From a virus: a stretch of DNA of 33,091 bases. The DNA is taken from UHGV virus genome UHGV-0073014; one strand, 5' to 3'. Below the pieces are notes generated by a model. It saw nothing but the letters and a program-made list of their open reading frames with translations, was not told where the DNA came from and made no database searches. Below, one piece after another: positions 4,905 through 33,071 of the stretch (its first letter is position 1; the number at the start of each line of letters is the position of its first letter). The translations under genes and the position numbers were made by a program.

Positions 4905-5161
4905 GTGACAACCTCAACCGACATGGCAGTGAGATCTGCCGGGTCCATCTCTGCAATTTCCTGTGCAGTCAGTGCCGGACTGGAGATGCGGGGGATCACG
5001 GTCATCATCGCGTTTACATCCATATCCATAATGGCCTGCAGGCGTGTACCGCGCAGCGCACCGGACTGCGGTTTACGCAGCACAATTTCGGTGATTTCTG
5101 TTTTACCGCGCTTGATGGGGGTATCCAGTTGAATGGTCTTTTCAGTCTGCTTATCGCTCAT
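4859..5161 (-). CDS. E: tail assembly chaperone E (P2 gpE-like)
   Basis: 100 aa ORF between FII and T, the position and size of P2 E. Confidence 0.85.
   Translation of the reverse strand: MSDKQTEKTIQLDTPIKRGKTEITEIVLRKPQSGALRGTRLQAIMDMDVNAMMTVIPRISSPALTAQEIAEMDPADLTAMSVEVVTFLLKKSVLAGLPTA
4898..4904 (-). other. -1 ribosomal frameshift slippery site T TTT TTG
   Basis: Coding-strand sequence ACT TTT TTG TTG read directly; known P2 E/E' mechanism. Confidence 0.7.
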
Positions 5162-5186
5162 TTTGCTGTCCTGTCAATTTGGTTCT

Positions 5187-5204
5187 GGCGCGGTATCCCG
5201 CGCC
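5187..5204 (-). other. GC-rich intercistronic hairpin between FII and E
   Basis: GGCGCGG-TATC-CCGCGCC, 7 bp perfect stem; no adjacent T-tract, so not a classic terminator. Confidence 0.3.
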
Positions 5205-5215
5205 GTTCAGATATA

Positions 5216-5731
5216 TCAGAGGCCGAGGGCGTTGCGGTGCGCTTCCATCAGGTCCACACCGTCCACAATTTCCACCATGTTGATAAGGTCCACTTCATAG
5301 AGCACCTCACCATTGATGGTCAGCTTCGCGTAGCTGTTGGTACTGGTCACTTTGGTGGTGTTGCTTTCGCCCGTCTTCCACTCGCCGGAATCCACTTCTT
5401 TGTGACGTCCACGCACGACAAGCTCCACGGCCTGCACTTCCCCGGTATCGTCACGCTGAATAGAGCCGGTAAAGCGCAGCTGGATGCCATCCACCGTGGC
5501 TTTACCCATCTGTTTAAACAGCAGCAATTCAGTACCACCAATGGAAAATTCTGTGTCCAGCGCACTGTCATCAAGCCCCAGATCCACATCCACCGCACCC
5601 GGCATTCCGCCGCCGCGATACTTCTCATATTTGCGGGTAAATTTCGGCAGCGTCAGCGACTCAACGATCCCCTGCCAGTTGTTCCCGTCGTTAAACAGGT
5701 TCAGGTGTTTTAATTTGCGTGGTAAAGCCAT
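5216..5731 (-). CDS. FII: tail tube protein FII
   Basis: 171 aa ORF directly downstream of the sheath gene, P2 FII-like. Confidence 0.85.
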   Translation of the reverse strand: MALPRKLKHLNLFNDGNNWQGIVESLTLPKFTRKYEKYRGGGMPGAVDVDLGLDDSALDTEFSIGGTELLLFKQMGKATVDGIQLRFTGSIQRDDTGEVQAVELVVRGRHKEVDSGEWKTGESNTTKVTSTNSYAKLTINGEVLYEVDLINMVEIVDGVDLMEAHRNALGL

Positions 5732-5740
5732 GTTGTCCCC

Positions 5741-6913
5741 TTACGCGCTGACCTGGCTGGCGAAATTCACCAGGTACTGATCGGTGATGCGCTGACGCAG
5801 CATCAGGTTTTCAAGTGGCGGCACTGGCGTGTAGTCGTAGTCGATGGTGAGTTTTCCGGCTTTCAGCGTGTCTTTGTCGTTCACCGACTCATCCAGCCAG
5901 CAATCACCACCAATGAGATAGCCCTGACTGACCAGGCTGCGCATTTTGGCGCGGATACCTTCGATAATGTCGCGGGCCAGCGACGGGTTAAGCGGTTTAT
6001 CCACCGCCCACATGTGTGCTTCTGCCATCGTGTCCATCAGCACCTGCGCCGTGCGGGTGTAGTTTTCGAAGGCAAAGAGCGGGTCATCACTCAGGCAGCG
6101 GGAACCCCAGAAGCGGAAACCGTCTTTACGCACAAGCGTGGTGACGTCGTTCTGGTTCAGCAGACCTGCATCGGTTGCCGGGTCCTGCAGATCCCAGAAC
6201 ACATCTGCAGAAATTCCGGTGACACCGTTCACGCCCACGTTGGACAGGCTTTTGTGCCATCCGGTCTGCTCGTCAATTTTGGCGCGCAGACCAAGCGCAC
6301 GGGCGGTGGCATATGCCGTTGCTTCGGCATTCAGCACCGTGTCCCAGCCAGTAAAGTCAGGCCAGATCAGCATCCCTTCGCGCTGGCTGAAGTTTTCACG
6401 GTAAGTGATTGCTTCCTGCACCGTCTTGCAACCATACGCTGACAGGTAAGCAAACCCACGCAGGCTTTGCGCCACGCTCAGCAACTCAGTAGCTACCGCC
6501 TTGGTGTCGTGGCCTGGCACGCCGAGAATGCGCGGTTTAACGCCGAGCTGTGACTGGGCAGATAACAGGGCTTTCATACCTGTTTTTTTACCTTCAGCAG
6601 TCACTGCGCCGATGATATTGGTCGTGGTTTCTTCTTCCGTTTCACCCTGCGGTACACGCACAACAACGGTCACGGGTTTTGCCTGGTCAGCGATGGCATC
6701 CAACGAGCGGGCCAGTGTGCCGGACTCACCCGCTTTACCGCTCGCAGTCAGCACATCAGTGATCAGCACAGGTTTATTAAGAGGAAACATTTTTGCATCG
6801 GCATCATCGCCCGTGCAGACCATACCCACGATGGCGGTGCTCACCGTGGTAATGGATCGGGTGCCTTCGTTGACTTCAACAACACGCACCCCGTGGTGGT
6901 AATCCTGAGCCAT
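5741..6913 (-). CDS. FI: tail sheath protein FI
   Basis: 390 aa ORF, P2 FI-like, first gene of the FI-FII-E-T-U-D block. Confidence 0.9.
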
Positions 6914-6989: not shown

Positions 6990-7007
6990 TGTACCGTTAT
7001 TCACACA
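6990..7007 (-). promoter_or_regulatory. late-promoter activator dyad TGT-N12-ACA (Ogr-type site) upstream of FI
   Basis: TGTaccgttattcacACA, about 75 nt upstream of the FI start; P2 late promoters carry this dyad. Confidence 0.5.
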
Positions 7008-7064: not shown

Positions 7065-7622
7065 TTAATTGCTCTTATTCGCCGGAAATTTTCTATAAAT
7101 GGTAGAAACGCCCACATCAAAAATCAGTGCAATACGCTGTCTTGATTCTCCAGCCTCAAGTAAACGCCCAATCTGTGCCCACTGTTCAGCTGTCAACTTA
7201 GGACGGCGTCCACCTACTCTACCTTTAGCACGAGCTGCAGCCAGCCCCGCCCTGGTACGTTCAACTATCAGTTCGCGTTCCATTTCAGCCAGGGCACCCA
7301 TGACATGAAAAAAGAAACGGCCCATTGGGGTGCTGGTATCAATACTGTCAGTCAGGCTTCGGAAATTCACGCCACGCTGGCGCAGCTCTTCTATCAGCGT
7401 AACGAGATGCCGCATACTGCGCCCCAGTCTGTCCAGCTTCCAGACAACCAGCGTGTCTCCTGCCGATAGTGTCCTGAGCAGCTTTTTCAGCCCCGGTCTG
7501 TCGGACTTGGTGCCACTGATTTTATCCTCAAAAATCCGCTCACATCCCGCGCAGTTCAGTGCATTACGTTGCAAATCGGTGTTCTGGTCATTTGTTGACA
7601 CGCGTACATAGCCAATAAGCAT
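7065..7622 (-). CDS. serine DNA invertase (Gin/Pin/Hin/Cin family)
   Basis: 185 aa, N-terminus MLIGYVRVSTNDQNTDLQ with the catalytic Ser context, C-terminal HTH; sits just outside an inverted-repeat-bounded segment. Confidence 0.95.
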   Translation of the reverse strand: MLIGYVRVSTNDQNTDLQRNALNCAGCERIFEDKISGTKSDRPGLKKLLRTLSAGDTLVVWKLDRLGRSMRHLVTLIEELRQRGVNFRSLTDSIDTSTPMGRFFFHVMGALAEMERELIVERTRAGLAAARAKGRVGGRRPKLTAEQWAQIGRLLEAGESRQRIALIFDVGVSTIYRKFPANKSN

Positions 7623-7624
7623 AA

Positions 7625-7632
7625 CCCCCCCC
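7625..7632. repeat. C8/G8 homopolymer 2 nt upstream of the invertase start codon
   Basis: Coding strand reads GGGGGGGG-TT-ATG. Confidence 0.9.
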
Positions 7633-7688
7633 TGAATAAAAACCGGAGATGATGCCAGTTAGCCGTTATCTCTGCATTTTCATAAACG

Positions 7689-7722
7689 TTGGTTTGGGAG
7701 AAGCGGCAAAACGGAATGTAGG
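7689..7722. repeat. left inverted repeat / invertase crossover site
   Basis: TTGGTTTGGGAGAAGCGGCAAAACGGAATGTAGG, exact reverse complement of 9236..9269; encodes the shared motif [11 protein letters not shown]. Confidence 0.85.
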
Positions 7723-8056
7723 TAACGGGCAAAACCAAATTCCGGATATGGCGGCGTTTGCCAGTTCACTTTCATCAACGGGTTTTCAAAAACTCCCTTC
7801 AGGTCTGATTATTCAGTGGGGTATTGTCAGTGGAGCATCAAACTATACGGTGACTTACCCGGTAACATTCCCAAATCGTTCACTTGCGCTGTTGGCTGTG
7901 CCACATACAACGTCGGTGGCTAGTATATCTGCAATGGGCATAGCGAACTGTTCTGATATCAGCAAATCACAGTTCTATATAATTGTTGGCGGTATATCTC
8001 AGGGAGAAATTGTCAAACATGAAAGGTCCTGTTTTTGGGTAGCAATCGGTGTATAG
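7723..8056 (+). CDS. alternative (currently unexpressed) tail-fibre C-terminal module
   Basis: Open frame continuing from the crossover motif ([10 protein letters not shown]...) parallel to the H C-terminus (GTGENQIPDM...); no promoter or start of its own. Confidence 0.7.
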
Positions 8057-8064
8057 GTATATCT

Positions 8065-8460
8065 ATGATTTATTTCTCAAAATCGACTAATGGTTTTTTC
8101 TTTGATGGTATAAACAGCGGCATGCCTGCTGACATTGTTGAGATAAGTACAGACTTATACAATGAATTAATTGCCGGACAGCAGGAAGGGGGTAAATTAA
8201 TCACGTCAGATGAAAATGGTTTACCGGTACTGAAATCTCCGGCGATTGATTATGTCGCACGTGCTGAAAATCAGCGAATGCAGTTACTTGCTCATGCCGA
8301 TAATGTCACAGCTGACTGGCGGGTGGAATTAATGCTTGGTGATATCAGCAGTACAGATAAAGAAAAACTATCTGCCTGGATGGACTACAAAAAAGAAGTA
8401 AAAGCCGTCGACACTTCGACGGCTCCTGAGATTAGCTGGCCTGAGTTACCGGAGATGTAG
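8065..8460 (+). CDS. tail-fibre assembly protein, partner of the alternative module
   Basis: About 131 aa; C-terminal DTSTAPEISWPELP motif shared with the convergent gene 8432..8875. Confidence 0.7.
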   Translation: MIYFSKSTNGFFFDGINSGMPADIVEISTDLYNELIAGQQEGGKLITSDENGLPVLKSPAIDYVARAENQRMQLLAHADNVTADWRVELMLGDISSTDKEKLSAWMDYKKEVKAVDTSTAPEISWPELPEM

Positions 8461-8875
8461 GCCATTCAATATCTGGAGCACTGGAGGTATCCACCAGTTC
8501 CAGTGCGTCCAGGTAATCCAGCCACAAATTATATTGCGCCAGTTCCTCACCTTTCAGACGACCAATAGCTGCTTTGCCAGGCCATTGCTTACTGTTCATG
8601 TATTCGTTAGCCTGGTTAATTAGTAGCTGTCTTTCTGATTCAGTAATTTCAATAAGCTCTTCATGCGTGGGTGGAGGAATATCTGCCCACGCAGGCAGCC
8701 CATCATCTCCGGCAATACGGATTTTTCCTTGTGGCGGTTCAGCCATAAACTCACTGATAATATTTTGATTTACTTCCTTTGCGTCTGATAAATCCCATCC
8801 CTCTGATTTATATTTATCAATCATATCCACAGGGAAAAAAGCATTATGCCTTGCGCTATAAACATATTTGTGCAT
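8432..8875 (-). CDS. tail-fibre assembly protein (gpG-like), expressed orientation
   Basis: Directly downstream of H; conserved C-terminal motif DTSSAPDIEWP. Confidence 0.8.
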   Translation of the reverse strand: MHKYVYSARHNAFFPVDMIDKYKSEGWDLSDAKEVNQNIISEFMAEPPQGKIRIAGDDGLPAWADIPPPTHEELIEITESERQLLINQANEYMNSKQWPGKAAIGRLKGEELAQYNLWLDYLDALELVDTSSAPDIEWPTSPVTQAS

Positions 8876-8895
8876 ATAAATCACCCTGAATAAAA

Positions 8896-10317
8896 TTACT
8901 CACCAACAGCCCACCAACTGTAATTCATCGATACTGTGGAGCTGGTTGATGCAGTTCTGTAAGCGGAATTAAAACCGGTTAGTGTTGGACCTTCTGCAGT
9001 CATCACGAATCCCCGTCCAGCGCCTAAAGGCGCACCACCATCACCAGAATGGGTAAGCATGGCGCAGTCCACTTTTTTAGGAAAAGGGATGCTGAATGTA
9101 ATTCTCATTGTTTGCGTCGATAATGTCGGCGTAATCGCACCACGACCATATTGCAGGATTTTCCCGTTGGGTAATTTCATCCATCCATCACCACTGGCAA
9201 AAGAGGTCATGTCCGGTATCTGATTTTCCCCTGTTCCTACATTCCGTTTTGCCGCTTCTCCCAAACCAAGGTATGTGAGAAGACCAGCTACATCCTTTCC
9301 ACTCAAATTAGTCAGCGTATTGTCCAGCGGTTGTTTACCTGCCAGCGCATTAAGCATTGTCGTGGCAAAGTTCGGGTCATTCCCCAGCGCTGCCGCCAGT
9401 TCGTTCAGTGTATCCAGTGCCGCAGGTGCAGAGCCCACCATTGCCGCAATCGCCGATTTCACAAAAGCCGTAGTGGCAATCTGTGTATTGTTGACCGACT
9501 GCGCCGCCGTGGGGGCTGTTGGCGTTCCGGTGAGTGCCGGACTCGACAACGGTGCTTTTAGTGCCAGCGCATTGTTAATGGTGGTACTGAAATTCGGATC
9601 ATTGTTAATGGCTGCGGCTATTTCTTTCAGCGTGTCCAGCGTGGCTGGCGCACCATTAATAAGGGCCGTCAGTGCCGCCTGTACAAACGCAGTGGTCGCA
9701 ACCTGCGTGGTATTATTCCCCGCCGCTGGCGTTGGCGCTTTTGGTTCTCCGGTAAATGTCGGATTATGTTTCTGCGCATACTGGGTATGAGGATCTTGTG
9801 CGGCAATGTGGTTTCTCATCTGGTCATCCACATACAGCTTTAATTCCAGGACTTTATCATCCACGTATTTACGGGTTGCCAGCACTACAGCAGGGTCGAT
9901 TTTCAGGATGATATTGTCCGTGCTGCTGGTAATCAGCACCATGCGCACGGTCTGGGTACGCCCGCTGCCTTCAGCCAGTTGCGGCTTATAGCTTTCCGGG
10001 CAGTTTCCCACGGCAATCAATGCCCCGGACTCATCAAACAGGCCCACTTCACGTATCCACCAACCGCCCTCGTTTTCAGGGATCACCTGTTCAGCAATAA
10101 TCTGGCTACTGTTCTGCGGGTCGATATAAAGCATATTCAGCGCAGCCCGGCGTTTCTCATTTACCAGTGCCGTCTGCTTTGCGTCCGGCGTTGGCAATAC
10201 TCCGCCGCCATCGCCCACCGCCATATGGGTAATTTTTAGCGGCACACCGAGCGCGGCGGCGCTGGCAAGTTTCGCCGCGCCAATATCCGTCAGCAGGGTA
10301 TAAAATTTTGTGCTCAT
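8896..10317 (-). CDS. H: tail fibre protein H (constant N-terminal part 9270..10317, variable C-terminal part inside the invertible segment)
   Basis: 473 aa ORF with a Thr/Ala-rich repetitive fibre region; the crossover repeat lies in-frame. Confidence 0.9.
   Translation of the reverse strand: MSTKFYTLLTDIGAAKLASAAALGVPLKITHMAVGDGGGVLPTPDAKQTALVNEKRRAALNMLYIDPQNSSQIIAEQVIPENEGGWWIREVGLFDESGALIAVGNCPESYKPQLAEGSGRTQTVRMVLITSSTDNIILKIDPAVVLATRKYVDDKVLELKLYVDDQMRNHIAAQDPHTQYAQKHNPTFTGEPKAPTPAAGNNTTQVATTAFVQAALTALINGAPATLDTLKEIAAAINNDPNFSTTINNALALKAPLSSPALTGTPTAPTAAQSVNNTQIATTAFVKSAIAAMVGSAPAALDTLNELAAALGNDPNFATTMLNALAGKQPLDNTLTNLSGKDVAGLLTYLGLGEAAKRNVGTGENQIPDMTSFASGDGWMKLPNGKILQYGRGAITPTLSTQTMRITFSIPFPKKVDCAMLTHSGDGGAPLGAGRGFVMTAEGPTLTGFNSAYRTASTSSTVSMNYSWWAVGE
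9236..9269. repeat. right inverted repeat / invertase crossover site
   Basis: Exact reverse complement of 7689..7722, inside the tail-fibre H coding sequence. Confidence 0.85.
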
Positions 10318-18759: not shown

Positions 18760-20526
18760 ATGAACACCACACTGACACCCGCAGATCTCGATCCCCGTCG
18801 GCAGGCCATGCTGCTGTACTTTCAGGGATACCGCGTAGCCCGCATTGCTGAAATGCTGGGCGAGAAAGTTGCAACCGTTCACAGCTGGAAAAAACGCGAC
18901 AAGTGGGGTGACTATGGGCCGCTGGATCAGATGCAGCTCACCACCGCCGCACGCTACTGCCAGCTCATTATGAAGGAGCACAAAGAAGGGAAAGATTTCA
19001 AAGAGATTGACCTGCTGGCGCGCCAGTCGGAGCGCCATGCGCGGATCGGCAAGTTTAACAATGGCGGCAACGAAGCCGACTTAAACCCTAACGTCGCCAA
19101 CCGCAACAAAGGCCCGCGCCGTCAGCCGGAAAAGAACGTTTTCACCGATGAACAGATTGAGAAGCTGGAAGAAATCTTCCATTCCTCCATGTTCAACTAC
19201 CAGCGCCACTGGTGGGAAGCCGGAAAAACCAACCGCATCCGCAACCTGCTGAAGTCACGCCAGATCGGCGCGACCTTCTATTTTGCCCGTGAAGCCCTGA
19301 TTGACGCCCTGCTAACCGGGCGTAACCAGATTTTCCTTTCCGCCAGTAAGGCACAGGCCCACGTCTTTAAGCAGTACATCATCGACTTCGCCAAAGAAGT
19401 GGAGGTGGAGCTGAAAGGCGATCCGATGGTGCTTCCTAACGGGGCCACGCTGTACTTCCTCGGCACCAATGCCCGCACGGCCCAGAGTTACCACGGCAAC
19501 CTGTATCTGGATGAATATTTCTGGATACCGAAATTCCAGGAGCTGCGCAAAGTGGCTTCCGGTATGGCTATTCACAAGAAATGGCGACAGACCTATTTTT
19601 CCACGCCATCCAGTCTGACACACAGTGCTTATCCGTTCTGGTCCGGTGCGCTGTTCAACCGTGGGCGCAACAGAGCCGATAAGGTGGACATCGACCTGTC
19701 CCACAGCAATCTGGCCCCCGGCCTGCTGTGCGCAGACGGGCAATACCGCCAGATAGTCACCGTGGAAGATGCGGTGCGCGGCGGCTGTAACCTGTTCGAC
19801 CTTGACCAGTTGCGCATGGAGTACAGCCCTGACGAATACCAGAACTTGCTGATGTGCGAGTTCGTGGACGATCTCGCGTCCGTGTTCCCGCTCAGCGAAT
19901 TGCAGGCGTGCATGGTGGACAGCTGGGAAGTCTGGACCGACTTTCATGCACTGGCCCTGCGCCCGTTTGGCTGGCGCGAAGTGTGGATCGGTTATGACCC
20001 GGCAAAAGGTACGCAGAACGGCGACAGCGCCGGATGCGTGGTGGTGGCACCGCCAGCCGTGCCAGGCGGTAAGTTCCGCATTCTTGAGCGTCACCAGTGG
20101 CGCGGAATGGACTTTCGCGCCCAGGCTGACGCCATCAAAAAACTGACCGAACAGTACAACGTGACCTATATCGGCATCGACTCAACCGGCGTTGGTCACG
20201 GGGTTTACGAGAACGTGAAAGCGTTTTTTCCTGCCGTCCGGGAGTTTGTCTACAACCCCAACGTTAAAAACGCCCTGGTACTCAAGGCCTACGACATTAT
20301 CAGCCACCGCCGTCTTGAGTTTGACGCCGGGCACACCGACATTGCGCAGTCATTCATGGCAATCCGTCGCGCCACCACCGCCAGCGGCAACCGCCCGACC
20401 TATGAAGCCAGCCGCAGCGAAGAAGCCAGCCATGCCGATCTGGCCTGGGCAACAATGCACGCACTGTTTAACGAACCACTGCAGGGCGAGTCCGCCAATA
20501 CCAGCAATATTGTGGAGATTTTTTGA
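18760..20526 (+). CDS. P: terminase large (ATPase) subunit P
   Basis: 588 aa ORF, P2 gpP-like, divergent from O. Confidence 0.9.
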   Translation: MNTTLTPADLDPRRQAMLLYFQGYRVARIAEMLGEKVATVHSWKKRDKWGDYGPLDQMQLTTAARYCQLIMKEHKEGKDFKEIDLLARQSERHARIGKFNNGGNEADLNPNVANRNKGPRRQPEKNVFTDEQIEKLEEIFHSSMFNYQRHWWEAGKTNRIRNLLKSRQIGATFYFAREALIDALLTGRNQIFLSASKAQAHVFKQYIIDFAKEVEVELKGDPMVLPNGATLYFLGTNARTAQSYHGNLYLDEYFWIPKFQELRKVASGMAIHKKWRQTYFSTPSSLTHSAYPFWSGALFNRGRNRADKVDIDLSHSNLAPGLLCADGQYRQIVTVEDAVRGGCNLFDLDQLRMEYSPDEYQNLLMCEFVDDLASVFPLSELQACMVDSWEVWTDFHALALRPFGWREVWIGYDPAKGTQNGDSAGCVVVAPPAVPGGKFRILERHQWRGMDFRAQADAIKKLTEQYNVTYIGIDSTGVGHGVYENVKAFFPAVREFVYNPNVKNALVLKAYDIISHRRLEFDAGHTDIAQSFMAIRRATTASGNRPTYEASRSEEASHADLAWATMHALFNEPLQGESANTSNIVEIF

Positions 20527-21551
20527 TGGGAAAGAGTAAGAAGAACCGCGCTACGGCGACGAAACAGATCCAGCATAAAAACCAGACTTCAGCCGAAGCA
20601 TTCAGCTTCGGTGATCCCGTTCCTGTTCTGGACCGCCGCGAACTGCTGGACTATGTGGAATGCGTACAGATGGACCGTTGGTATGAGCCACCAGTGAGTT
20701 TCGACGGTCTGGCGCGAACCTTCCGCGCCGCCGTACACCACAGCTCACCGATTGCAGTAAAGTGCAACATTCTGACCAGCACCTATATCCCTCACCCGTT
20801 GCTCAGCCAGCAGGCTTTTTCACGTTTTGTGCAGGACTATCTGGTATTTGGTAATGCCTACCTGGAGAAACGCACGAACCGCTTCGGTGAAGTTATCGCC
20901 CTTGAACCTGCCCTGGCAAAATACACTCGACGCGGATTAGACCTGGATACCTACTGGTTTGTGCAATACGGTATGGCAACCCAGCCGTATCAGTTCACGA
21001 AAGGCAGCATCTTTCATCTGATGGAACCGGATATTAATCAGGAGATCTACGGCCTGCCTGGCTATCTTTCTGCTATTCCATCCGCTCTGCTCAACGAGTC
21101 CGCAACGCTGTTCCGCCGGAAGTATTACATTAACGGCAGTCATGCAGGCTTCATCATGTACATGACCGATGCCGCGCAAAACCAGGAGGATGTGAACAAC
21201 CTCCGCAACGCAATGAAAAGCGCCAAAGGACCGGGTAACTTCCGCAACCTGTTTATGTACTCGCCTAACGGCAAAAAGGATGGGCTTCAGATCATTCCTC
21301 TGTCAGAAGTCGCGGCGAAGGATGAGTTTCTGAATATCAAAAATGTCAGCCGCGATGACATGATGGCAGCACATCGCGTACCGCCTCAGATGATGGGAAT
21401 TTTGCCGAATAATGTTGGTGGTTTTGGTGATGTGGAGAAGGCGAGCTGCGTCTTCGTAAGAAATGAACTATTACCACTTCAAAAAAGATTCATGGAAATA
21501 AACAGATGGCTTGGTCATGAAATTATAAATTTTGAAATATATACATTATAA
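20523..21551 (+). CDS. Q: portal protein Q; last ~30 codons are AT-rich
   Basis: 342 aa ORF, P2 gpQ-like; DNA composition turns AT-rich from about 21458. Confidence 0.85.
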   Translation: MMGKSKKNRATATKQIQHKNQTSAEAFSFGDPVPVLDRRELLDYVECVQMDRWYEPPVSFDGLARTFRAAVHHSSPIAVKCNILTSTYIPHPLLSQQAFSRFVQDYLVFGNAYLEKRTNRFGEVIALEPALAKYTRRGLDLDTYWFVQYGMATQPYQFTKGSIFHLMEPDINQEIYGLPGYLSAIPSALLNESATLFRRKYYINGSHAGFIMYMTDAAQNQEDVNNLRNAMKSAKGPGNFRNLFMYSPNGKKDGLQIIPLSEVAAKDEFLNIKNVSRDDMMAAHRVPPQMMGILPNNVGGFGDVEKASCVFVRNELLPLQKRFMEINRWLGHEIINFEIYTL

Positions 21552-21588: not shown

Positions 21589-22650
21589 TTAATATTCAAA
21601 ATTATTTTCTTCAATAGAGAACTCAATCCCTCGGGATAACTTATCAATATTCACATCAAATGCGATATCTGTTAATTCACCATCCTCGATTTCATACATA
21701 ACTTCAATTTCAATATCGAAACTAATCTCTTGAACTTCAGTTCGTGTGGTTGTCTCCATTGGAATCATTACTTTATCTTCGCTATCCCAATACCCATTAT
21801 TAAAGTCTGGACCAGAAACAGTAACTTCAAAATCTACAGAAACAGAGAAGGTCGCTAGACAATAATTATTGTTAATCTTAATTATTGATGGTTCAAAGTC
21901 ATCAATATTGACGACTTCAAATGAATCCAATTCAGCGTCTTCCCAAGTTGAAACGTTATATCCATCGGCATCATTGAGTTGGGCAATTACGTCCGCTCTT
22001 ATGTCTTCACGTTTGCTTTCGATAAACTGCATCAATTTATTACTTAATTCGTTTGTATGCGTATTGTATTCACCTAGAAACTTATCAAGTGAATCAATTT
22101 GATGAAGATTGTTTTTACCATCACAATAATTTTTTAAGTCACTATCCTCAGAAATGATATACACATCTTCATCATTAACAAATCGCTCTACCGCAGCTAA
22201 AGTGATTGCATCAGGAAACTCACTTTTTTTCTTATTTTGCCCAAATGGTGGTTCTTTGCCAAAGTATTTATCTAAAACCTCATTAAGATCTATTACTTCT
22301 ATTGTAGCTAATTTGGCGTGACATCCTTTCAAAAAATCATCAAAAACTTTTTGTGCTGCTTCGTGAATTTCATGTTCGTTAAATTGCTGAAAAAAACCAT
22401 GGAGCGGTCCATTATCAATACTATTCAAAAGCCTAGCTTTTCTTTGTACTGTGTTTATAGCCTGCAGAGCATCCTTTATTGATTCCTCTATTTTACCTTT
22501 TACTTCTCTCTCTACAACTGTAGTTGTAATTAAGACTAAATCACCTTTCGCACATAATTCATGGAAAGCTTTAAATGCTACCCCCTCAAAATGAAGACCA
22601 GCCTTTACGTACGTTTGTGTGTCAATAAATACCTTATTTGTTTTAAGCAT
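21589..22650 (-). CDS. PIN-like-domain protein with acidic beta-rich C-terminal domain; candidate defence/cargo gene
   Basis: 353 aa; N-terminus KVFIDTQTYV...LVLITTTVVEREVKGKIEE...EFPDAITLAAV...DVYIISEDSD fits a PIN-like nuclease pattern (conserved D, E, D); AT-rich; sits between portal Q and cos; candidate sigma70 promoter TTGATT-N17-TAATCT upstream. Confidence 0.6.
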   Translation of the reverse strand: MLKTNKVFIDTQTYVKAGLHFEGVAFKAFHELCAKGDLVLITTTVVEREVKGKIEESIKDALQAINTVQRKARLLNSIDNGPLHGFFQQFNEHEIHEAAQKVFDDFLKGCHAKLATIEVIDLNEVLDKYFGKEPPFGQNKKKSEFPDAITLAAVERFVNDEDVYIISEDSDLKNYCDGKNNLHQIDSLDKFLGEYNTHTNELSNKLMQFIESKREDIRADVIAQLNDADGYNVSTWEDAELDSFEVVNIDDFEPSIIKINNNYCLATFSVSVDFEVTVSGPDFNNGYWDSEDKVMIPMETTTRTEVQEISFDIEIEVMYEIEDGELTDIAFDVNIDKLSRGIEFSIEENNFEY

Positions 22651-22775
22651 ACTAATCCTAATAAGTTTTAAGATCCGCTACAATTGTTTATGTTTATTTT
22701 TTATCAATAATCATACGTAGTTAAGATTATCCATGTCGAAAAATTAAATCAACTTCAATTTATCCTTAAGCGCGC

Positions 22776-22794
22776 GCTCGTATCCCCGCCACGC
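22776..22794 (-). other. cos-like cohesive-end sequence
   Basis: Minus strand reads GGCGTGGCGGGGATACGAG, close to the P2/186 19-nt cohesive end (GGCG(A/T)GGCGGGGAAAGCA-), recalled from memory; GC-rich patch within AT-rich cargo. Confidence 0.6.
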
Positions 22795-22843
22795 CTGCCC
22801 GCTTTGTGTAGTGGTTTTCATGCACCTGCATGACATAAGCAAA

Positions 22844-22863
22844 AGCCCGCCAGCTCTGGCGGG
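22844..22863 (-). terminator. Rho-independent terminator for minus-strand transcription from the HNH gene
   Basis: GCCCGCCA-GAGC-TGGCGGGC followed by TTTTGCTT on the minus strand. Confidence 0.6.
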
Positions 22864-22977
22864 CATCAGCAAAAACGATCCTCAAACGATCATGCGATTT
22901 CATGCGGCATAGACATGCGTTGGCAAAAATGCACGAAATACTCAGCTTATAGGAAATGGTCTTTTTCCAACCTCCAG

Positions 22978-23697
22978 TTAGCCAAAGCAGAAACCAATAT
23001 TGCAATTTGAAACTCCACAGTTGTGAAATTGATGTGGACCGACTCTTAGCTTGTGTTCGTCTCCTACAATCCGAGTCCCCTTAACCAACATATCTAATCT
23101 TTCCACAATCAATCTTTCAGGCGCATCAACTTTAATAATTAAACGAGGACCTTTCCTTTTTTCTATAATAGTTATTCTAGGACCGACAACCTGAACATCC
23201 CAATGCCTTGCACTACATACCCACTCATTCTTAATTAATTCAAGATTAACAATACCTTGACTATCGTAAAATTTACCCGAAATAAGAAAAGCATTATTTT
23301 CTTTTTCAATGGTTAACAATGGCTCATTTTGAAACATTATTGGTACAGTACAGGATTCAAACGTCGCACCACCAAATATTATTGTTGGATGCCTATCAGA
23401 AAAGTCCAATATATCGGCCACATTCCCTTTTTGTAAGGCTGCAGGAGATTCCATTGCTTTAATGATTTTCTCTTTAGAGTAAAGACGTTTCGTTACTTTC
23501 GCATGACACGTAGGACAAAGTAGTGCTATTGCATTTGGAGAGTGCTCCTTTGCATCAGCGTATGTGGGAATTACATGCTCATACTCAACAATGGGAGAAG
23601 CACAAACAACGCAACCGAAGCCACAGCGCTGCCTTACCTCCAGTTTTACAGGTTCAGGAATTGTTCTAGATAACCCATGCTTGTTAATAGTTGTCAT
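22978..23697 (-). CDS. HNH-endonuclease-domain protein with unknown C-terminal domain; candidate defence gene
   Basis: 239 aa; CGFGCVVC...EYEHVIP...NAIALLCPTCHAKVTK fits the HNH zinc-finger nuclease motif; AT-rich; SD AAGGTAAGG before the ATG; lies between the SOS operon and cos. Confidence 0.65.
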   Translation of the reverse strand: MTTINKHGLSRTIPEPVKLEVRQRCGFGCVVCASPIVEYEHVIPTYADAKEHSPNAIALLCPTCHAKVTKRLYSKEKIIKAMESPAALQKGNVADILDFSDRHPTIIFGGATFESCTVPIMFQNEPLLTIEKENNAFLISGKFYDSQGIVNLELIKNEWVCSARHWDVQVVGPRITIIEKRKGPRLIIKVDAPERLIVERLDMLVKGTRIVGDEHKLRVGPHQFHNCGVSNCNIGFCFG

Positions 23698-31161: not shown

Positions 31162-31347
31162 ATTTTGCTTTTATATCTGCGCCTAATATAACAATGAGCC
31201 GCAGGCTAACCGCAAAAGTCACATACTCACATAGCAAAAAATAGCCAACTTCATTATGGCTTCAGTGAGATGTATGGTCGCAGGATTTCATACATTGACA
31301 CTGGTTATACATACAGTAAAAATGCTCTCTATTGGAGGGCATTTTTT

Positions 31348-32400
31348 ATGGCAGTACGAAAACTCACCACAGGAAAATGGCTTTGCGAATGTTACCCCGC
31401 CGGACGTAGTGGACGCCGTGTGCGTAAACAATTCGCCACCAAAGGCGAAGCTCTGGCTTTTGAGCGTCACACGATGGAAGAAACCGAAGCAAAGCCCTGG
31501 CTGGGCGAATCAGTGGATCGTCGGACATTGAAAGACGTGGTTGAGCTATGGTTCAAACTACATGGTAAATCTCTAACCGCTGGGCAGCATGTCTATGACA
31601 AATTGCTGTTGATGGTTGATGCTCTGGGCAATCCTCTTGCAACCGATCTCACCTCTAAAATGTTTGCCCACTATCGAGATAAACGCCTGACAGGCGAGAT
31701 CTACTTCAGCGAGAAATGGAAGAAAGGAGCAAGCCCGGTCACCATTAACCTGGAGCAAAGCTATCTAAGTAGTGTTTTTAGCGAACTATCCCGTCTGGGC
31801 GAATGGTCGTATCCGAACCCACTGGAGAACATGCGAAAATTCACCATCGCAGAAAAAGAGATGGCATGGCTTACCCATGAGCAGATTGTTGAATTGCTGG
31901 CTGATTGCAAACGTCAGGACCCAATTCTGGCACTGGTAGTTAAGATATGCTTAAGCACAGGCGCACGCTGGCGTGAAGCCGTAAATCTTACCCGCTCACA
32001 GGTGACCAAATACCGAATTACCTTTGTCAGAACGAAGGGGAAGAAAAACAGAAGCATCCCTATCAGTAAAGAGCTTTACGAAGAGATCATGGCGCTTGAT
32101 GGGTTCAATTTCTTCACAGACTGCTATTTTCAATTTTTATCCGTGATGGAAAAAACGTCTATCGTGCTCCCTCGCGGTCAACTGACACACGTTCTGCGCC
32201 ATACGTTTGCGGCGCACTTCATGATGTCGGGTGGAAACATTCTGGCCTTACAAAAAATTCTTGGACACCACGATATAAAAATGACTATGCGTTACGCACA
32301 TCTGGCACCGGATCATCTGGAAACGGCGCTCCGTTTCAATCCTCTGGCAACGCTGCCAAATGGCGACAAAGTGGCGGCAGCGGTTGGCATTACCCCGTAA
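31348..32400 (+). CDS. int: tyrosine integrase
   Basis: C-terminal catalytic signature R...HxLRHT...Y (HVLRHTFAAHF, MRYAHL); start at MAVRKLTTGKW preceded by GGAGGG. Confidence 0.9.
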   Translation: MAVRKLTTGKWLCECYPAGRSGRRVRKQFATKGEALAFERHTMEETEAKPWLGESVDRRTLKDVVELWFKLHGKSLTAGQHVYDKLLLMVDALGNPLATDLTSKMFAHYRDKRLTGEIYFSEKWKKGASPVTINLEQSYLSSVFSELSRLGEWSYPNPLENMRKFTIAEKEMAWLTHEQIVELLADCKRQDPILALVVKICLSTGARWREAVNLTRSQVTKYRITFVRTKGKKNRSIPISKELYEEIMALDGFNFFTDCYFQFLSVMEKTSIVLPRGQLTHVLRHTFAAHFMMSGGNILALQKILGHHDIKMTMRYAHLAPDHLETALRFNPLATLPNGDKVAAAVGITP

Positions 32401-32504: not shown

Positions 32505-33071
32505 CTACCCTGCAACCCTCTCAACCATCCTCAAAATCTCCTCGCGCGATAGCGGCTTACGGTCGGTGACAAAATGCAGCGTCATCCCCTCAATAAACGC
32601 ATCAAGCGCGCGGGCGGTTCCGGGTTCAAACCATTGTTCGAGCGTTTGCTGACTGCGCTGCATCCAGTTTTGCATTACCGTTTTTAATAGCGGTTTTCGG
32701 CTAGCCAGCGCGTAGAGCTGGTACATCAGCTCCATATTATCCGGCGTTGCAACCTGTGAGCTGTAGATCATATCGGTGATAGCCTGGCATGCGCCTTGAG
32801 CATCACTAACATCGCTAAAAAATGCCTGATATTGCCGGGACATAATCTCAGTAAAACTGCTGAACGCCTCCAGCAACAACTCATCAATTCCTGAAAAATA
32901 GTAGGTCATCGATCCCAACGGTACCCCGGCAAGGGTAGCAATTTTGCGGTGCGTAACAGCATGTATTCCGTAAAGTTTCACCGCCTCCAGCGTGGCCTGG
33001 ATAATTTTTTCTCGCCGTTGCGGATCGTTAGCGCGACGCATGTCATTTCCTCTCTCTGCAATTGTGTACAA
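32505..33071 (-). CDS. TetR-family transcriptional regulator, likely host gene
   Basis: 188 aa with N-terminal TetR-type HTH ([20 protein letters not shown]); ordinary GC content, outside the phage gene order. Confidence 0.75.

Follow-up and report, generated by a model that had tools for sequence, protein, structure and literature searches.

Does the tail-fibre region of this P2/186-like E. coli prophage carry a DNA inversion switch, and does the switch still operate? The window, i.e. the whole 33,091-nucleotide stretch of UHGV virus genome UHGV-0073014 that was analysed, had been read in an earlier note as containing an invertible host-range switch next to a Gin/Pin-type invertase. We consider it very likely that the region is a two-state site-specific inversion switch of the Gin/Cin/Pin/Hin type.

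An invertible segment within a P2/186-type tail module

The tail genes follow the order V-W-J-I-H-tfa ... FI-FII-E-T-U-D, as seen from the annotation of near-identical loci and from comparison with P2. Ogr-type late-promoter sites (TGT-N12-ACA) were found upstream of V, FI, O and P, and no such site lies inside the invertible segment. The CI, CII, Int and gpA genes are also present. The constant part of H (9270-10317) lies outside the segment and its variable C-terminus (8896-9269) within it; the segment contains two opposed C-terminal cassettes, each with an assembly gene (Table 1).

Table 1. Features of the tail-fibre switch; positions refer to the window.
Feature	Position	Strand	Basis or remark
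Serine DNA invertase, 185 aa, Pin/Gin/Cin/Hin group	7065..7622	-	Pfam, PDB, sequence identity
Probable Fis-dependent recombinational enhancer in the 5' part of the invertase gene	7533..7604	-	By homology
Invertase-proximal 26-bp crossover site	7677..7702	+	TTTTCATAAACG-TT-GGTTTGGGAGAA; identical to the e14 pin-proximal site
Silent alternative C-terminal cassette, 122 codons	7688..8056	+	Pfam Gp53-like_C, E=2e-15
Invertible segment	7689..9269	.	1581 bp; flipped exactly between otherwise identical prophages
Left arm, perfect 34-bp inverted repeat	7689..7722	.	Begins at core TT
tfa', assembly gene, 131 aa, cognate to the silent cassette	8065..8460	+	Pfam Caudo_TAP, E=5e-24
Terminator-like hairpin directly 3' of tfa	8400..8427	-	12-bp stem, then T run
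tfa, assembly gene, 147 aa, expressed in the present orientation	8432..8875	-	Pfam Caudo_TAP, E=1e-31
Tail-fibre gene H, 473 aa	8896..10317	-	Pfam Phage_tail_fib N-terminal (E=9e-64), Gp53-like_C
Right arm, perfect 34-bp inverted repeat	9236..9269	.	
H-internal 26-bp crossover site	9256..9281	-	TTCTCACATACC-TT-GGTTTGGGAGAA, read on the - strand

The two arms are perfect reverse complements over 34 bp, where the perfect match ends (chance expectation for such a pair in 33 kb, ~2e-12). An imperfect inverted repeat goes on inward, to 89 nt in all with 82% complementarity (7677-7765 and 9193-9281). Both arms start at codon position 2 and are translated as L or V plus 11 residues, in H and in the alternative cassette alike. 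From the repeat onward, the silent cassette aligns with the expressed H C-terminus (38% identical, both gp53-like); it lacks a start signal at the repeat, and no promoter-like site was found upstream of it on the + strand. The assembly genes are convergent, overlap by 29 nt at their 3' ends and are 27% identical overall, with a common C-terminal motif (VDTS-AP-I-WP); the hairpin that follows tfa has a folding energy of -18 kcal/mol (z = -3.7). When the segment 7689-9269 was flipped computationally, an uninterrupted 471-aa H' resulted. All together, these observations bear out the anatomy set out in the earlier note: a P2-type tail module, perfect repeats placed in frame inside H and at the start of a promoterless alternative C-terminal module, two convergent assembly genes with a shared motif between the arms, and an inversion that swaps the H C-terminus and its adjacent assembly gene.

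The invertase and its crossover sites

By its sequence, the recombinase is a member of the Gin/Cin/Pin/Hin group. It consists of a Resolvase domain (residues 3-135, E=2e-53) followed by HTH_7 (138-181), aligns over its full length with Gin in the PDB (3uj3, E=1e-92), and is 85% identical to PinE of e14, 79% to P1 Cin and 75% to Mu Gin. Matches to a named NCBIfam subfamily were sub-threshold only, and PADLOC returned nothing. The ORF is intact, with no inactivating change. The catalytic residues Ser9 (in YVRVSTNDQ) and Arg42 are present, equivalent to S9 of Gin or S10 of Hin and to R43 of Hin. Fis/enhancer-dependent invertases are distinguished by specific residues, in Hin K47, K/R48, K/R51, Q151, R154 and L155 (PMC3798978); the counterparts K46, K47, R50, Q150, R153 and L154 are all found here, the numbering being that of Hin minus 1.

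Both 26-bp sites are imperfect palindromes of 12-2-12 layout with a TT core, lie in inverted orientation, as is typical of Din invertase sites, and align with Mu gix. Only two copies of the site occur in the window, which makes this a two-state switch. Indeed, no third crossover site, as in the multi-state shufflon of one EPEC prophage, was found in the window, where the only other match differs at 3 positions, as expected by chance. The comparison with Mu gix and the e14 sites suggested in the earlier note was thus favourable, since the repeats contain gix/pix-type sites with matching core dinucleotides. Its placement of a Gin-like serine invertase directly outside the segment, at the position of Z/fun in P2, agrees with the comparison to P2, where fun(Z) likewise lies between the tail-fibre assembly genes and the sheath gene FI. 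The Gin/Pin assignment stands as to the group; the closest relative, however, is the e14 P segment with Pin rather than Mu Gin.

The candidate enhancer corresponds to the invertase codon region +19..+90, where the P1 cin enhancer is annotated. It is identical to P1 at 56/72 positions (78%), as compared to 69% for the remainder of the invertase gene, and its proximal end lies ~85-95 bp from the crossover core, similar to the enhancer-crossover spacing of ~100 bp reported for Hin (PMC3798978). In invertases of this group, the enhancer acts in cis, has two Fis sites and sits in the 5' portion of the gene; by analogy, the present invertase is probably dependent on Fis and this enhancer. A consensus scan for Fis sites in the invertase gene was unspecific, the motif being too degenerate to place them. 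Candidate Fis sites at +90 and +138, a pair spaced by 48 bp in e14, had also been considered and were dropped, the P1 cin enhancer being annotated at +19..+90.

Both orientations occur in nature

The computed flipped sequence and the window orientation were both used as queries against E. coli genomes. Full-length, single-piece matches at 100% coverage were obtained in five cases for the flipped and in eight for the window orientation. In the prophages of E. coli F637 and F1267, the flanks of 3789 and 4131 bp match without a single mismatch, and their 1581-bp segments are identical only after reverse complementation. In strain Combat13F7, the chromosome and a 45-kb circular record differ by an exact flip of the segment. 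Since the two arms diverge beyond this point, the crossover can be placed within the first 19 nt of the repeat, extended by one palindromic position at its flank; this stretch contains the predicted core. The refuting condition of the earlier note, a single orientation together with an inactivated invertase, thus does not hold: both orientations were found, in otherwise identical prophages of public genomes, and the invertase is free of inactivating mutations. The public relatives carrying both states are 98.5% identical to the window prophage, i.e. near-identical to it and distinct from the source strain itself; this similarity suggests that the source strain switches as well.

Proposed mechanism and alternative explanations

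We propose the following mechanism. A fixed late promoter located outside the segment would drive H as part of the V-W-J-I-H operon. The first 349 codons of H are constant; the final ~124, together with the assembly (chaperone) gene that follows, lie inside the 1581-bp segment. The invertase, encoded just outside, would bind both inverted 26-bp sites, probably activated, on the model of Hin, Gin and Cin, by host Fis on the enhancer in the 5' part of its gene. It would cut both sites at the central TT and exchange the ends, and the flip would put the second C-terminal cassette with its own assembly gene behind constant H. A population of lysogens would then release two kinds of virions with different receptor-binding tips. 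These tips may recognise different receptors and confer different host ranges; at the sequence level, the C-termini share 38% identity and the chaperones 27%.

Could the switch be a fossil, its architecture inherited, inversion having stopped in this prophage and the orientation differences being old? The search for an invertase promoter would be in keeping with this: none was clear, and a consensus scan of 7623-7700, including the overlap with the proximal site, found no sigma-70-like sequence. The cin and gin promoters are described as overlapping the proximal site, and we infer that the present invertase also has a promoter of its own. Against a fossil, the invertase ORF retains all catalytic and Fis-contact residues, the two crossover sites are undamaged and their cores match, prophages without any difference over 9.5 kb exist in both states, and the single assembly of Combat13F7 holds both. 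An intact enzyme and intact sites, together with both states in identical prophages and in one strain, argue for recent and frequent switching, and we find a fossil very unlikely. Even less probable is that the plus-strand ORF 7649/7652-8056 is an independent gene for a small gp53-like protein instead of a silent cassette. PGAP and the record of phage Cartapus do treat it as a CDS in its own right that starts at an upstream ATG; however, the 13 upstream codons fall outside the repeat and correspond to nothing in H, the alignment with H runs from the repeat onward, and no promoter-like site precedes the ORF. Moreover, the flip fuses it in frame to H, and the fused 471-aa gene is annotated as such in flipped genomes.

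The flips might also result from RecA-dependent homologous recombination between the inverted repeats, the neighbouring recombinase being incidental. Repeats of 34-89 bp could in principle recombine, but the exchange in Combat13F7 took place within an identical stretch of 19 nt, and efficient recombination by RecA requires roughly 25 bp. This stretch is, moreover, a canonical pix/gix site beside its cognate invertase. Of the alternatives, we give RecA the smallest chance, and we retain site-specific inversion by the invertase as the explanation.

Implications

The switch is real and evidently active, and its class is already known: Mu G, P1 C and e14 P have been textbook material since the 1980s, and the arrangement has been annotated and published for P2-like phages and prophages. 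Its discovery value is consequently small. In practice, the orientation sets the tail-fibre tip of a P2-like phage or tailocin, which matters for host-range prediction and phage engineering, and assemblies record one arbitrary state. Automatic annotation was seen to mislabel H as a pseudogene in one of the two states. Searching public genomes with a computed flipped sequence offers a quick proof of active switches without reads.

The invertase could conceivably act in trans on e14 or other Pin-type segments of the host, because the proximal site and the inner half-sites match those of e14; host Pin enzymes could likewise act on this prophage. For PinQ and e14 StfE2, a tail-fibre product that blocks the adsorption of other phages was recently reported (PMC12529663). 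By analogy, cross-action in trans between the invertase and host Pin may be combined with a fibre product of one orientation that blocks phage adsorption, a conjunction that we regard as improbable. If true, the switch would do more in the lysogen than diversify virions.

Comparison with known inversion systems

The closest known system is that of e14, a cryptic prophage of E. coli K-12. Besides the similarity of PinE, the invertase-proximal 26-bp site and both inner half-sites (GGTTTGGGAGAA) are identical, the repeat starts at the core dinucleotide in both, and the order of constant stf, tfa, convergent tfa', stf' cassette and invertase is the same, down to a 29-nt overlap of the tfaP and tfaE 3' ends. 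However, e14 is a defective lambdoid element whose tail-fibre gene has decayed, whereas the window carries a complete P2/186-type tail module, and the variable C-termini differ. The Mu G segment is comparable in that Sc is fused to Sv or Sv' with the chaperones U or U', gin lies just outside and is transcribed away from the segment, and the 26-bp site has the same 12-2-12 structure. In contrast, the 34-bp repeat of Mu spans the whole gix site, with a TC core, while in the window the repeat starts with the core TT, and no more than 8/12 positions agree between the outer half-sites; moreover, Mu belongs to another phage family and has a 3-kb segment with non-overlapping chaperone genes. P1 C resembles the present system through Cin and the enhancer annotated in the 5' part of cin, conserved here, but its segment is 4.2 kb and cin lies upstream, transcribed towards the segment, with cixL at the cin 3' end.

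Among P2-like relatives, the same gene set occupies the same place between the tail-fibre genes and FI in Escherichia phage Cartapus, pro483, 500465-1, Klebsiella KP12, Salmonella Fels-2 (fin) and prophages of EPEC E2348/69. Only the C-terminal cassette pair varies, most of them sharing <=83% of the 3.5-kb query. The annotation of Cartapus gives the same layout, and its invertase, 99.5% identical to that of the window, carries the remark 'Mu phage Gin invertase homolog'. Inversion was inferred from genome comparison in Fels-2 (PMC7953296) and shown by sequencing and PCR in the P2-like prophages of EPEC (PMC4272514), one of which differs from the present switch in having three repeats and four states.

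Anatomy of the invertible segment

The segment is bounded by a perfect 34-bp inverted repeat, TTGGTTTGGGAGAAGCGGCAAAACGGAATGTAGG, whose exact reverse complement forms the second arm. The perfect match stops at both ends of the arms, which a repeat finder places at the core of a longer, 89-nt inverted repeat (82% complementary); only ~2e-12 perfect 34-nt inverted pairs would be expected by chance in 33 kb. Both arms start at codon position 2 and encode the same 11 residues. When 7689-9269 was reverse-complemented in silico, the reading frame remained unbroken and yielded a fused fibre, H', of 471 aa. Genes were called from an ORF map combined with Pfam searches.

Features of the switch region and of its prophage context
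Feature	Coordinates	Strand	Description
Invertase	7065-7622	-	185 aa; Resolvase + HTH_7
Putative enhancer	7533-7604		homologous to P1 cin enhancer
34-bp arms	7689-7722; 9236-9269		perfect inverted repeat
89-nt repeat	7677-7765; 9193-9281		
Alternative fibre cassette	7688-8056	+	122 codons; gp53-like C-terminal; begins at repeat
tfa', second assembly gene	8065-8460	+	131 aa; Caudo_TAP; convergent with tfa
Hairpin	8400-8427	-	12-bp stem + T run; -18 kcal/mol, z = -3.7
Hairpin	~8470-8515	+	longer, without T run; -30.8 kcal/mol, z = -6.2
tfa, tail-fibre assembly gene	8432-8875	-	147 aa; Caudo_TAP
Tail fibre H	8896-10317	-	473 aa; N-terminal tail-collar domain (E=9e-64); gp53-like C-terminal domain
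TGT-N12-ACA elements	6990-7007; 12788; 18696; 18754		upstream of FI, V, O, P operons
Portal	20523-21551		
Two cargo genes	21589-23697	-	353-aa PIN_12-domain protein; 239-aa HNH endonuclease
Integrase	31270-32400		
TetR-family regulator	32505-33071		

The two assembly genes overlap by 29 nt at their 3' ends; their products are 27% identical and have the C-terminal motif VDTS-AP-I-WP in common. The C-termini of H and of the alternative cassette are 38% identical. The repeat, gene, flip and identity results agree, so that every part of the description in the earlier note, which placed perfect repeats in frame within H and an alternative cassette around two convergent assembly genes with a common C-terminal motif, was correct. 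A strong hairpin also lies directly 3' of each assembly gene, antisense to the other one. These hairpins may stop late transcription from entering the invertase gene in either switch state.

The invertase and its crossover sites

The gene immediately outside the repeats had been proposed to encode a Gin-like serine invertase. Indeed, its product gives a full-length alignment to the Mu Gin crystal-structure sequence 3uj3 (E=1e-92), retains the catalytic Ser9 together with Arg42, and is 99.5% identical to the invertase of phage Cartapus, 85% to e14 PinE, 79% to P1 Cin and 75% to Mu Gin. Six Hin residues (K47, K/R48, K/R51, Q151, R154 and L155) are conserved only in Fis/enhancer-dependent invertases (McLean et al., eLife 2013, PMC3798978), and all six are present here, as K46, K47, R50, Q150, R153 and L154.

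Written in the outside-to-inside direction, the invertase-proximal junction is TTTTCATAAACG-TT-GGTTTGGGAGAA (7677-7702) and the second junction is TTCTCACATACC-TT-GGTTTGGGAGAA (9256-9281, minus strand). Both align with Mu gix, TTATCCAAAACC-TC-GGTTTACAGGAA, in a 12-2-12 layout throughout, and the first has exactly the sequence of e14's pin-proximal site (E. coli K-12). The core is TT at both sites; inversion by this enzyme family needs matching cores. As in e14, the core marks the exact start of the perfect repeat, whereas in Mu the repeat spans the whole site. No further crossover site was found within the window, which makes this a two-state switch.

In the P1 record, the enhancer of Cin-mediated inversion is annotated at cin +19..+90. 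The corresponding window stretch is identical at 56 of 72 positions (69% in the remainder of the gene), and about 85-95 bp separate its proximal end from the crossover core, similar to the spacing of ~100 bp given for Hin (PMC3798978). This homology supports a putative enhancer, at which Fis would bind. By analogy to the invertase family, Fis/enhancer control, an invertase promoter and a host-range consequence of the flip would all be expected.

Both orientations occur in public genomes

Two queries, the region in its window orientation and a version whose segment had been inverted computationally, were run against complete E. coli genomes. The window orientation gave eight full-length single-piece matches (best, isolate F637, 98.5%) and the flipped orientation five (best, isolate F1267, 98.5%, with an equal bit score). 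F637 and F1267 show no mismatch over 3789 bp of left and 4131 bp of right flank, and their 1581-bp segments are identical only once reverse-complemented.

Strain Combat13F7 carries one prophage in opposite states, in its chromosome and in a 45-kb circular record (NZ_CP019246.1 and NZ_CP019245.1; the circular one is labelled 'plasmid'). Its arms diverge from repeat position 20 onward, which places the exchange in the initial 19 nt and one flanking palindromic position, a stretch that includes the predicted core. Efficient general recombination requires more than 19 nt, thus the exchange points to the site-specific enzyme. The circular record may stem from a phage that had excised or was replicating, or be a by-product of assembling DNA in mixed orientations; whichever its origin, both states were present in the culture.

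In window-orientation genomes, RefSeq/PGAP splits H into an 'incomplete' pseudogene and a small separate CDS (database loci L002, 4997-6418, and L004, NZ_CP019246.1 of Combat13F7, 4999-6420). These intervals are the equivalents of window H and the 473-codon ORF is uninterrupted in both; flipped genomes carry a normal annotation of the 471-aa gene. The pseudogene call is an artefact of annotation caused by the switch.

Prophage context and transcription

The window is a P2/186-like prophage, with the gene order tail D-U-T-E-FII-FI, switch, H-I-J-W-V and then head genes; terminase, portal, two cargo genes, DinI-like, gpA, a Dam-type methylase, CII, CI and integrase are also present. TGT-N12-ACA is the pattern bound by Ogr-type late activators of P2, and the four elements correspond to the four late promoters of P2. 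Since such sites precede the FI, V, O and P operons, H is transcribed from the fixed late promoter of the V operon. No promoter was found for the alternative cassette. P2 carries fun(Z) between G and FI, where the window has the invertase, as the earlier note had stated.

The cargo genes sit between portal and the DinI-like gene and gpA, in a slot that is variable in P2-like phages and often houses anti-phage systems; neither gene had a match in PADLOC or NCBIfam. The TetR-family gene just past the integrase is probably host DNA beside the attachment site, and the right prophage end is thus expected near 32.4-32.5 kb.

Relationship to known switches

Taken together, the switch interpretation is borne out by the anatomy, by the family to which enzyme and sites belong and by precise flips in nature. 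In the proposed mechanism the invertase exchanges the DNA ends at the two TT cores, and each flip brings the other C-terminal cassette and its cognate assembly gene behind the constant part of H. Since the invertase-proximal site is identical to an e14 site, Pin-type invertases and sites might cross-talk in one host. The switch might also serve the lysogen, e.g. by receptor blocking, as reported for PinQ/StfE2 (PMC12529663). We consider this reading improbable.

The switch is real, yet already known: the arrangement in a P2-type tail module is annotated in Escherichia phage Cartapus (Peduoviridae), its invertase being noted as 'Mu phage Gin invertase homolog', and inversion has been reported in P2-like prophages, by sequencing and PCR in E. 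coli E2348/69 (Goldberg et al. 2014, PMC4272514) and, as inferred from an LT2 versus LT7 genome comparison, in Salmonella Fels-2, with its pin homologue fin (PMC7953296). The arrangement is also present in pro483, 500465-1, Klebsiella KP12 and others, and 67 phage records match the region. Among known switches, the e14 P segment with PinE is closest to this one, sharing the site, a 29-nt overlap of the tfa genes and an enzyme at 85% identity; Mu G/Gin and P1 C/Cin come next.
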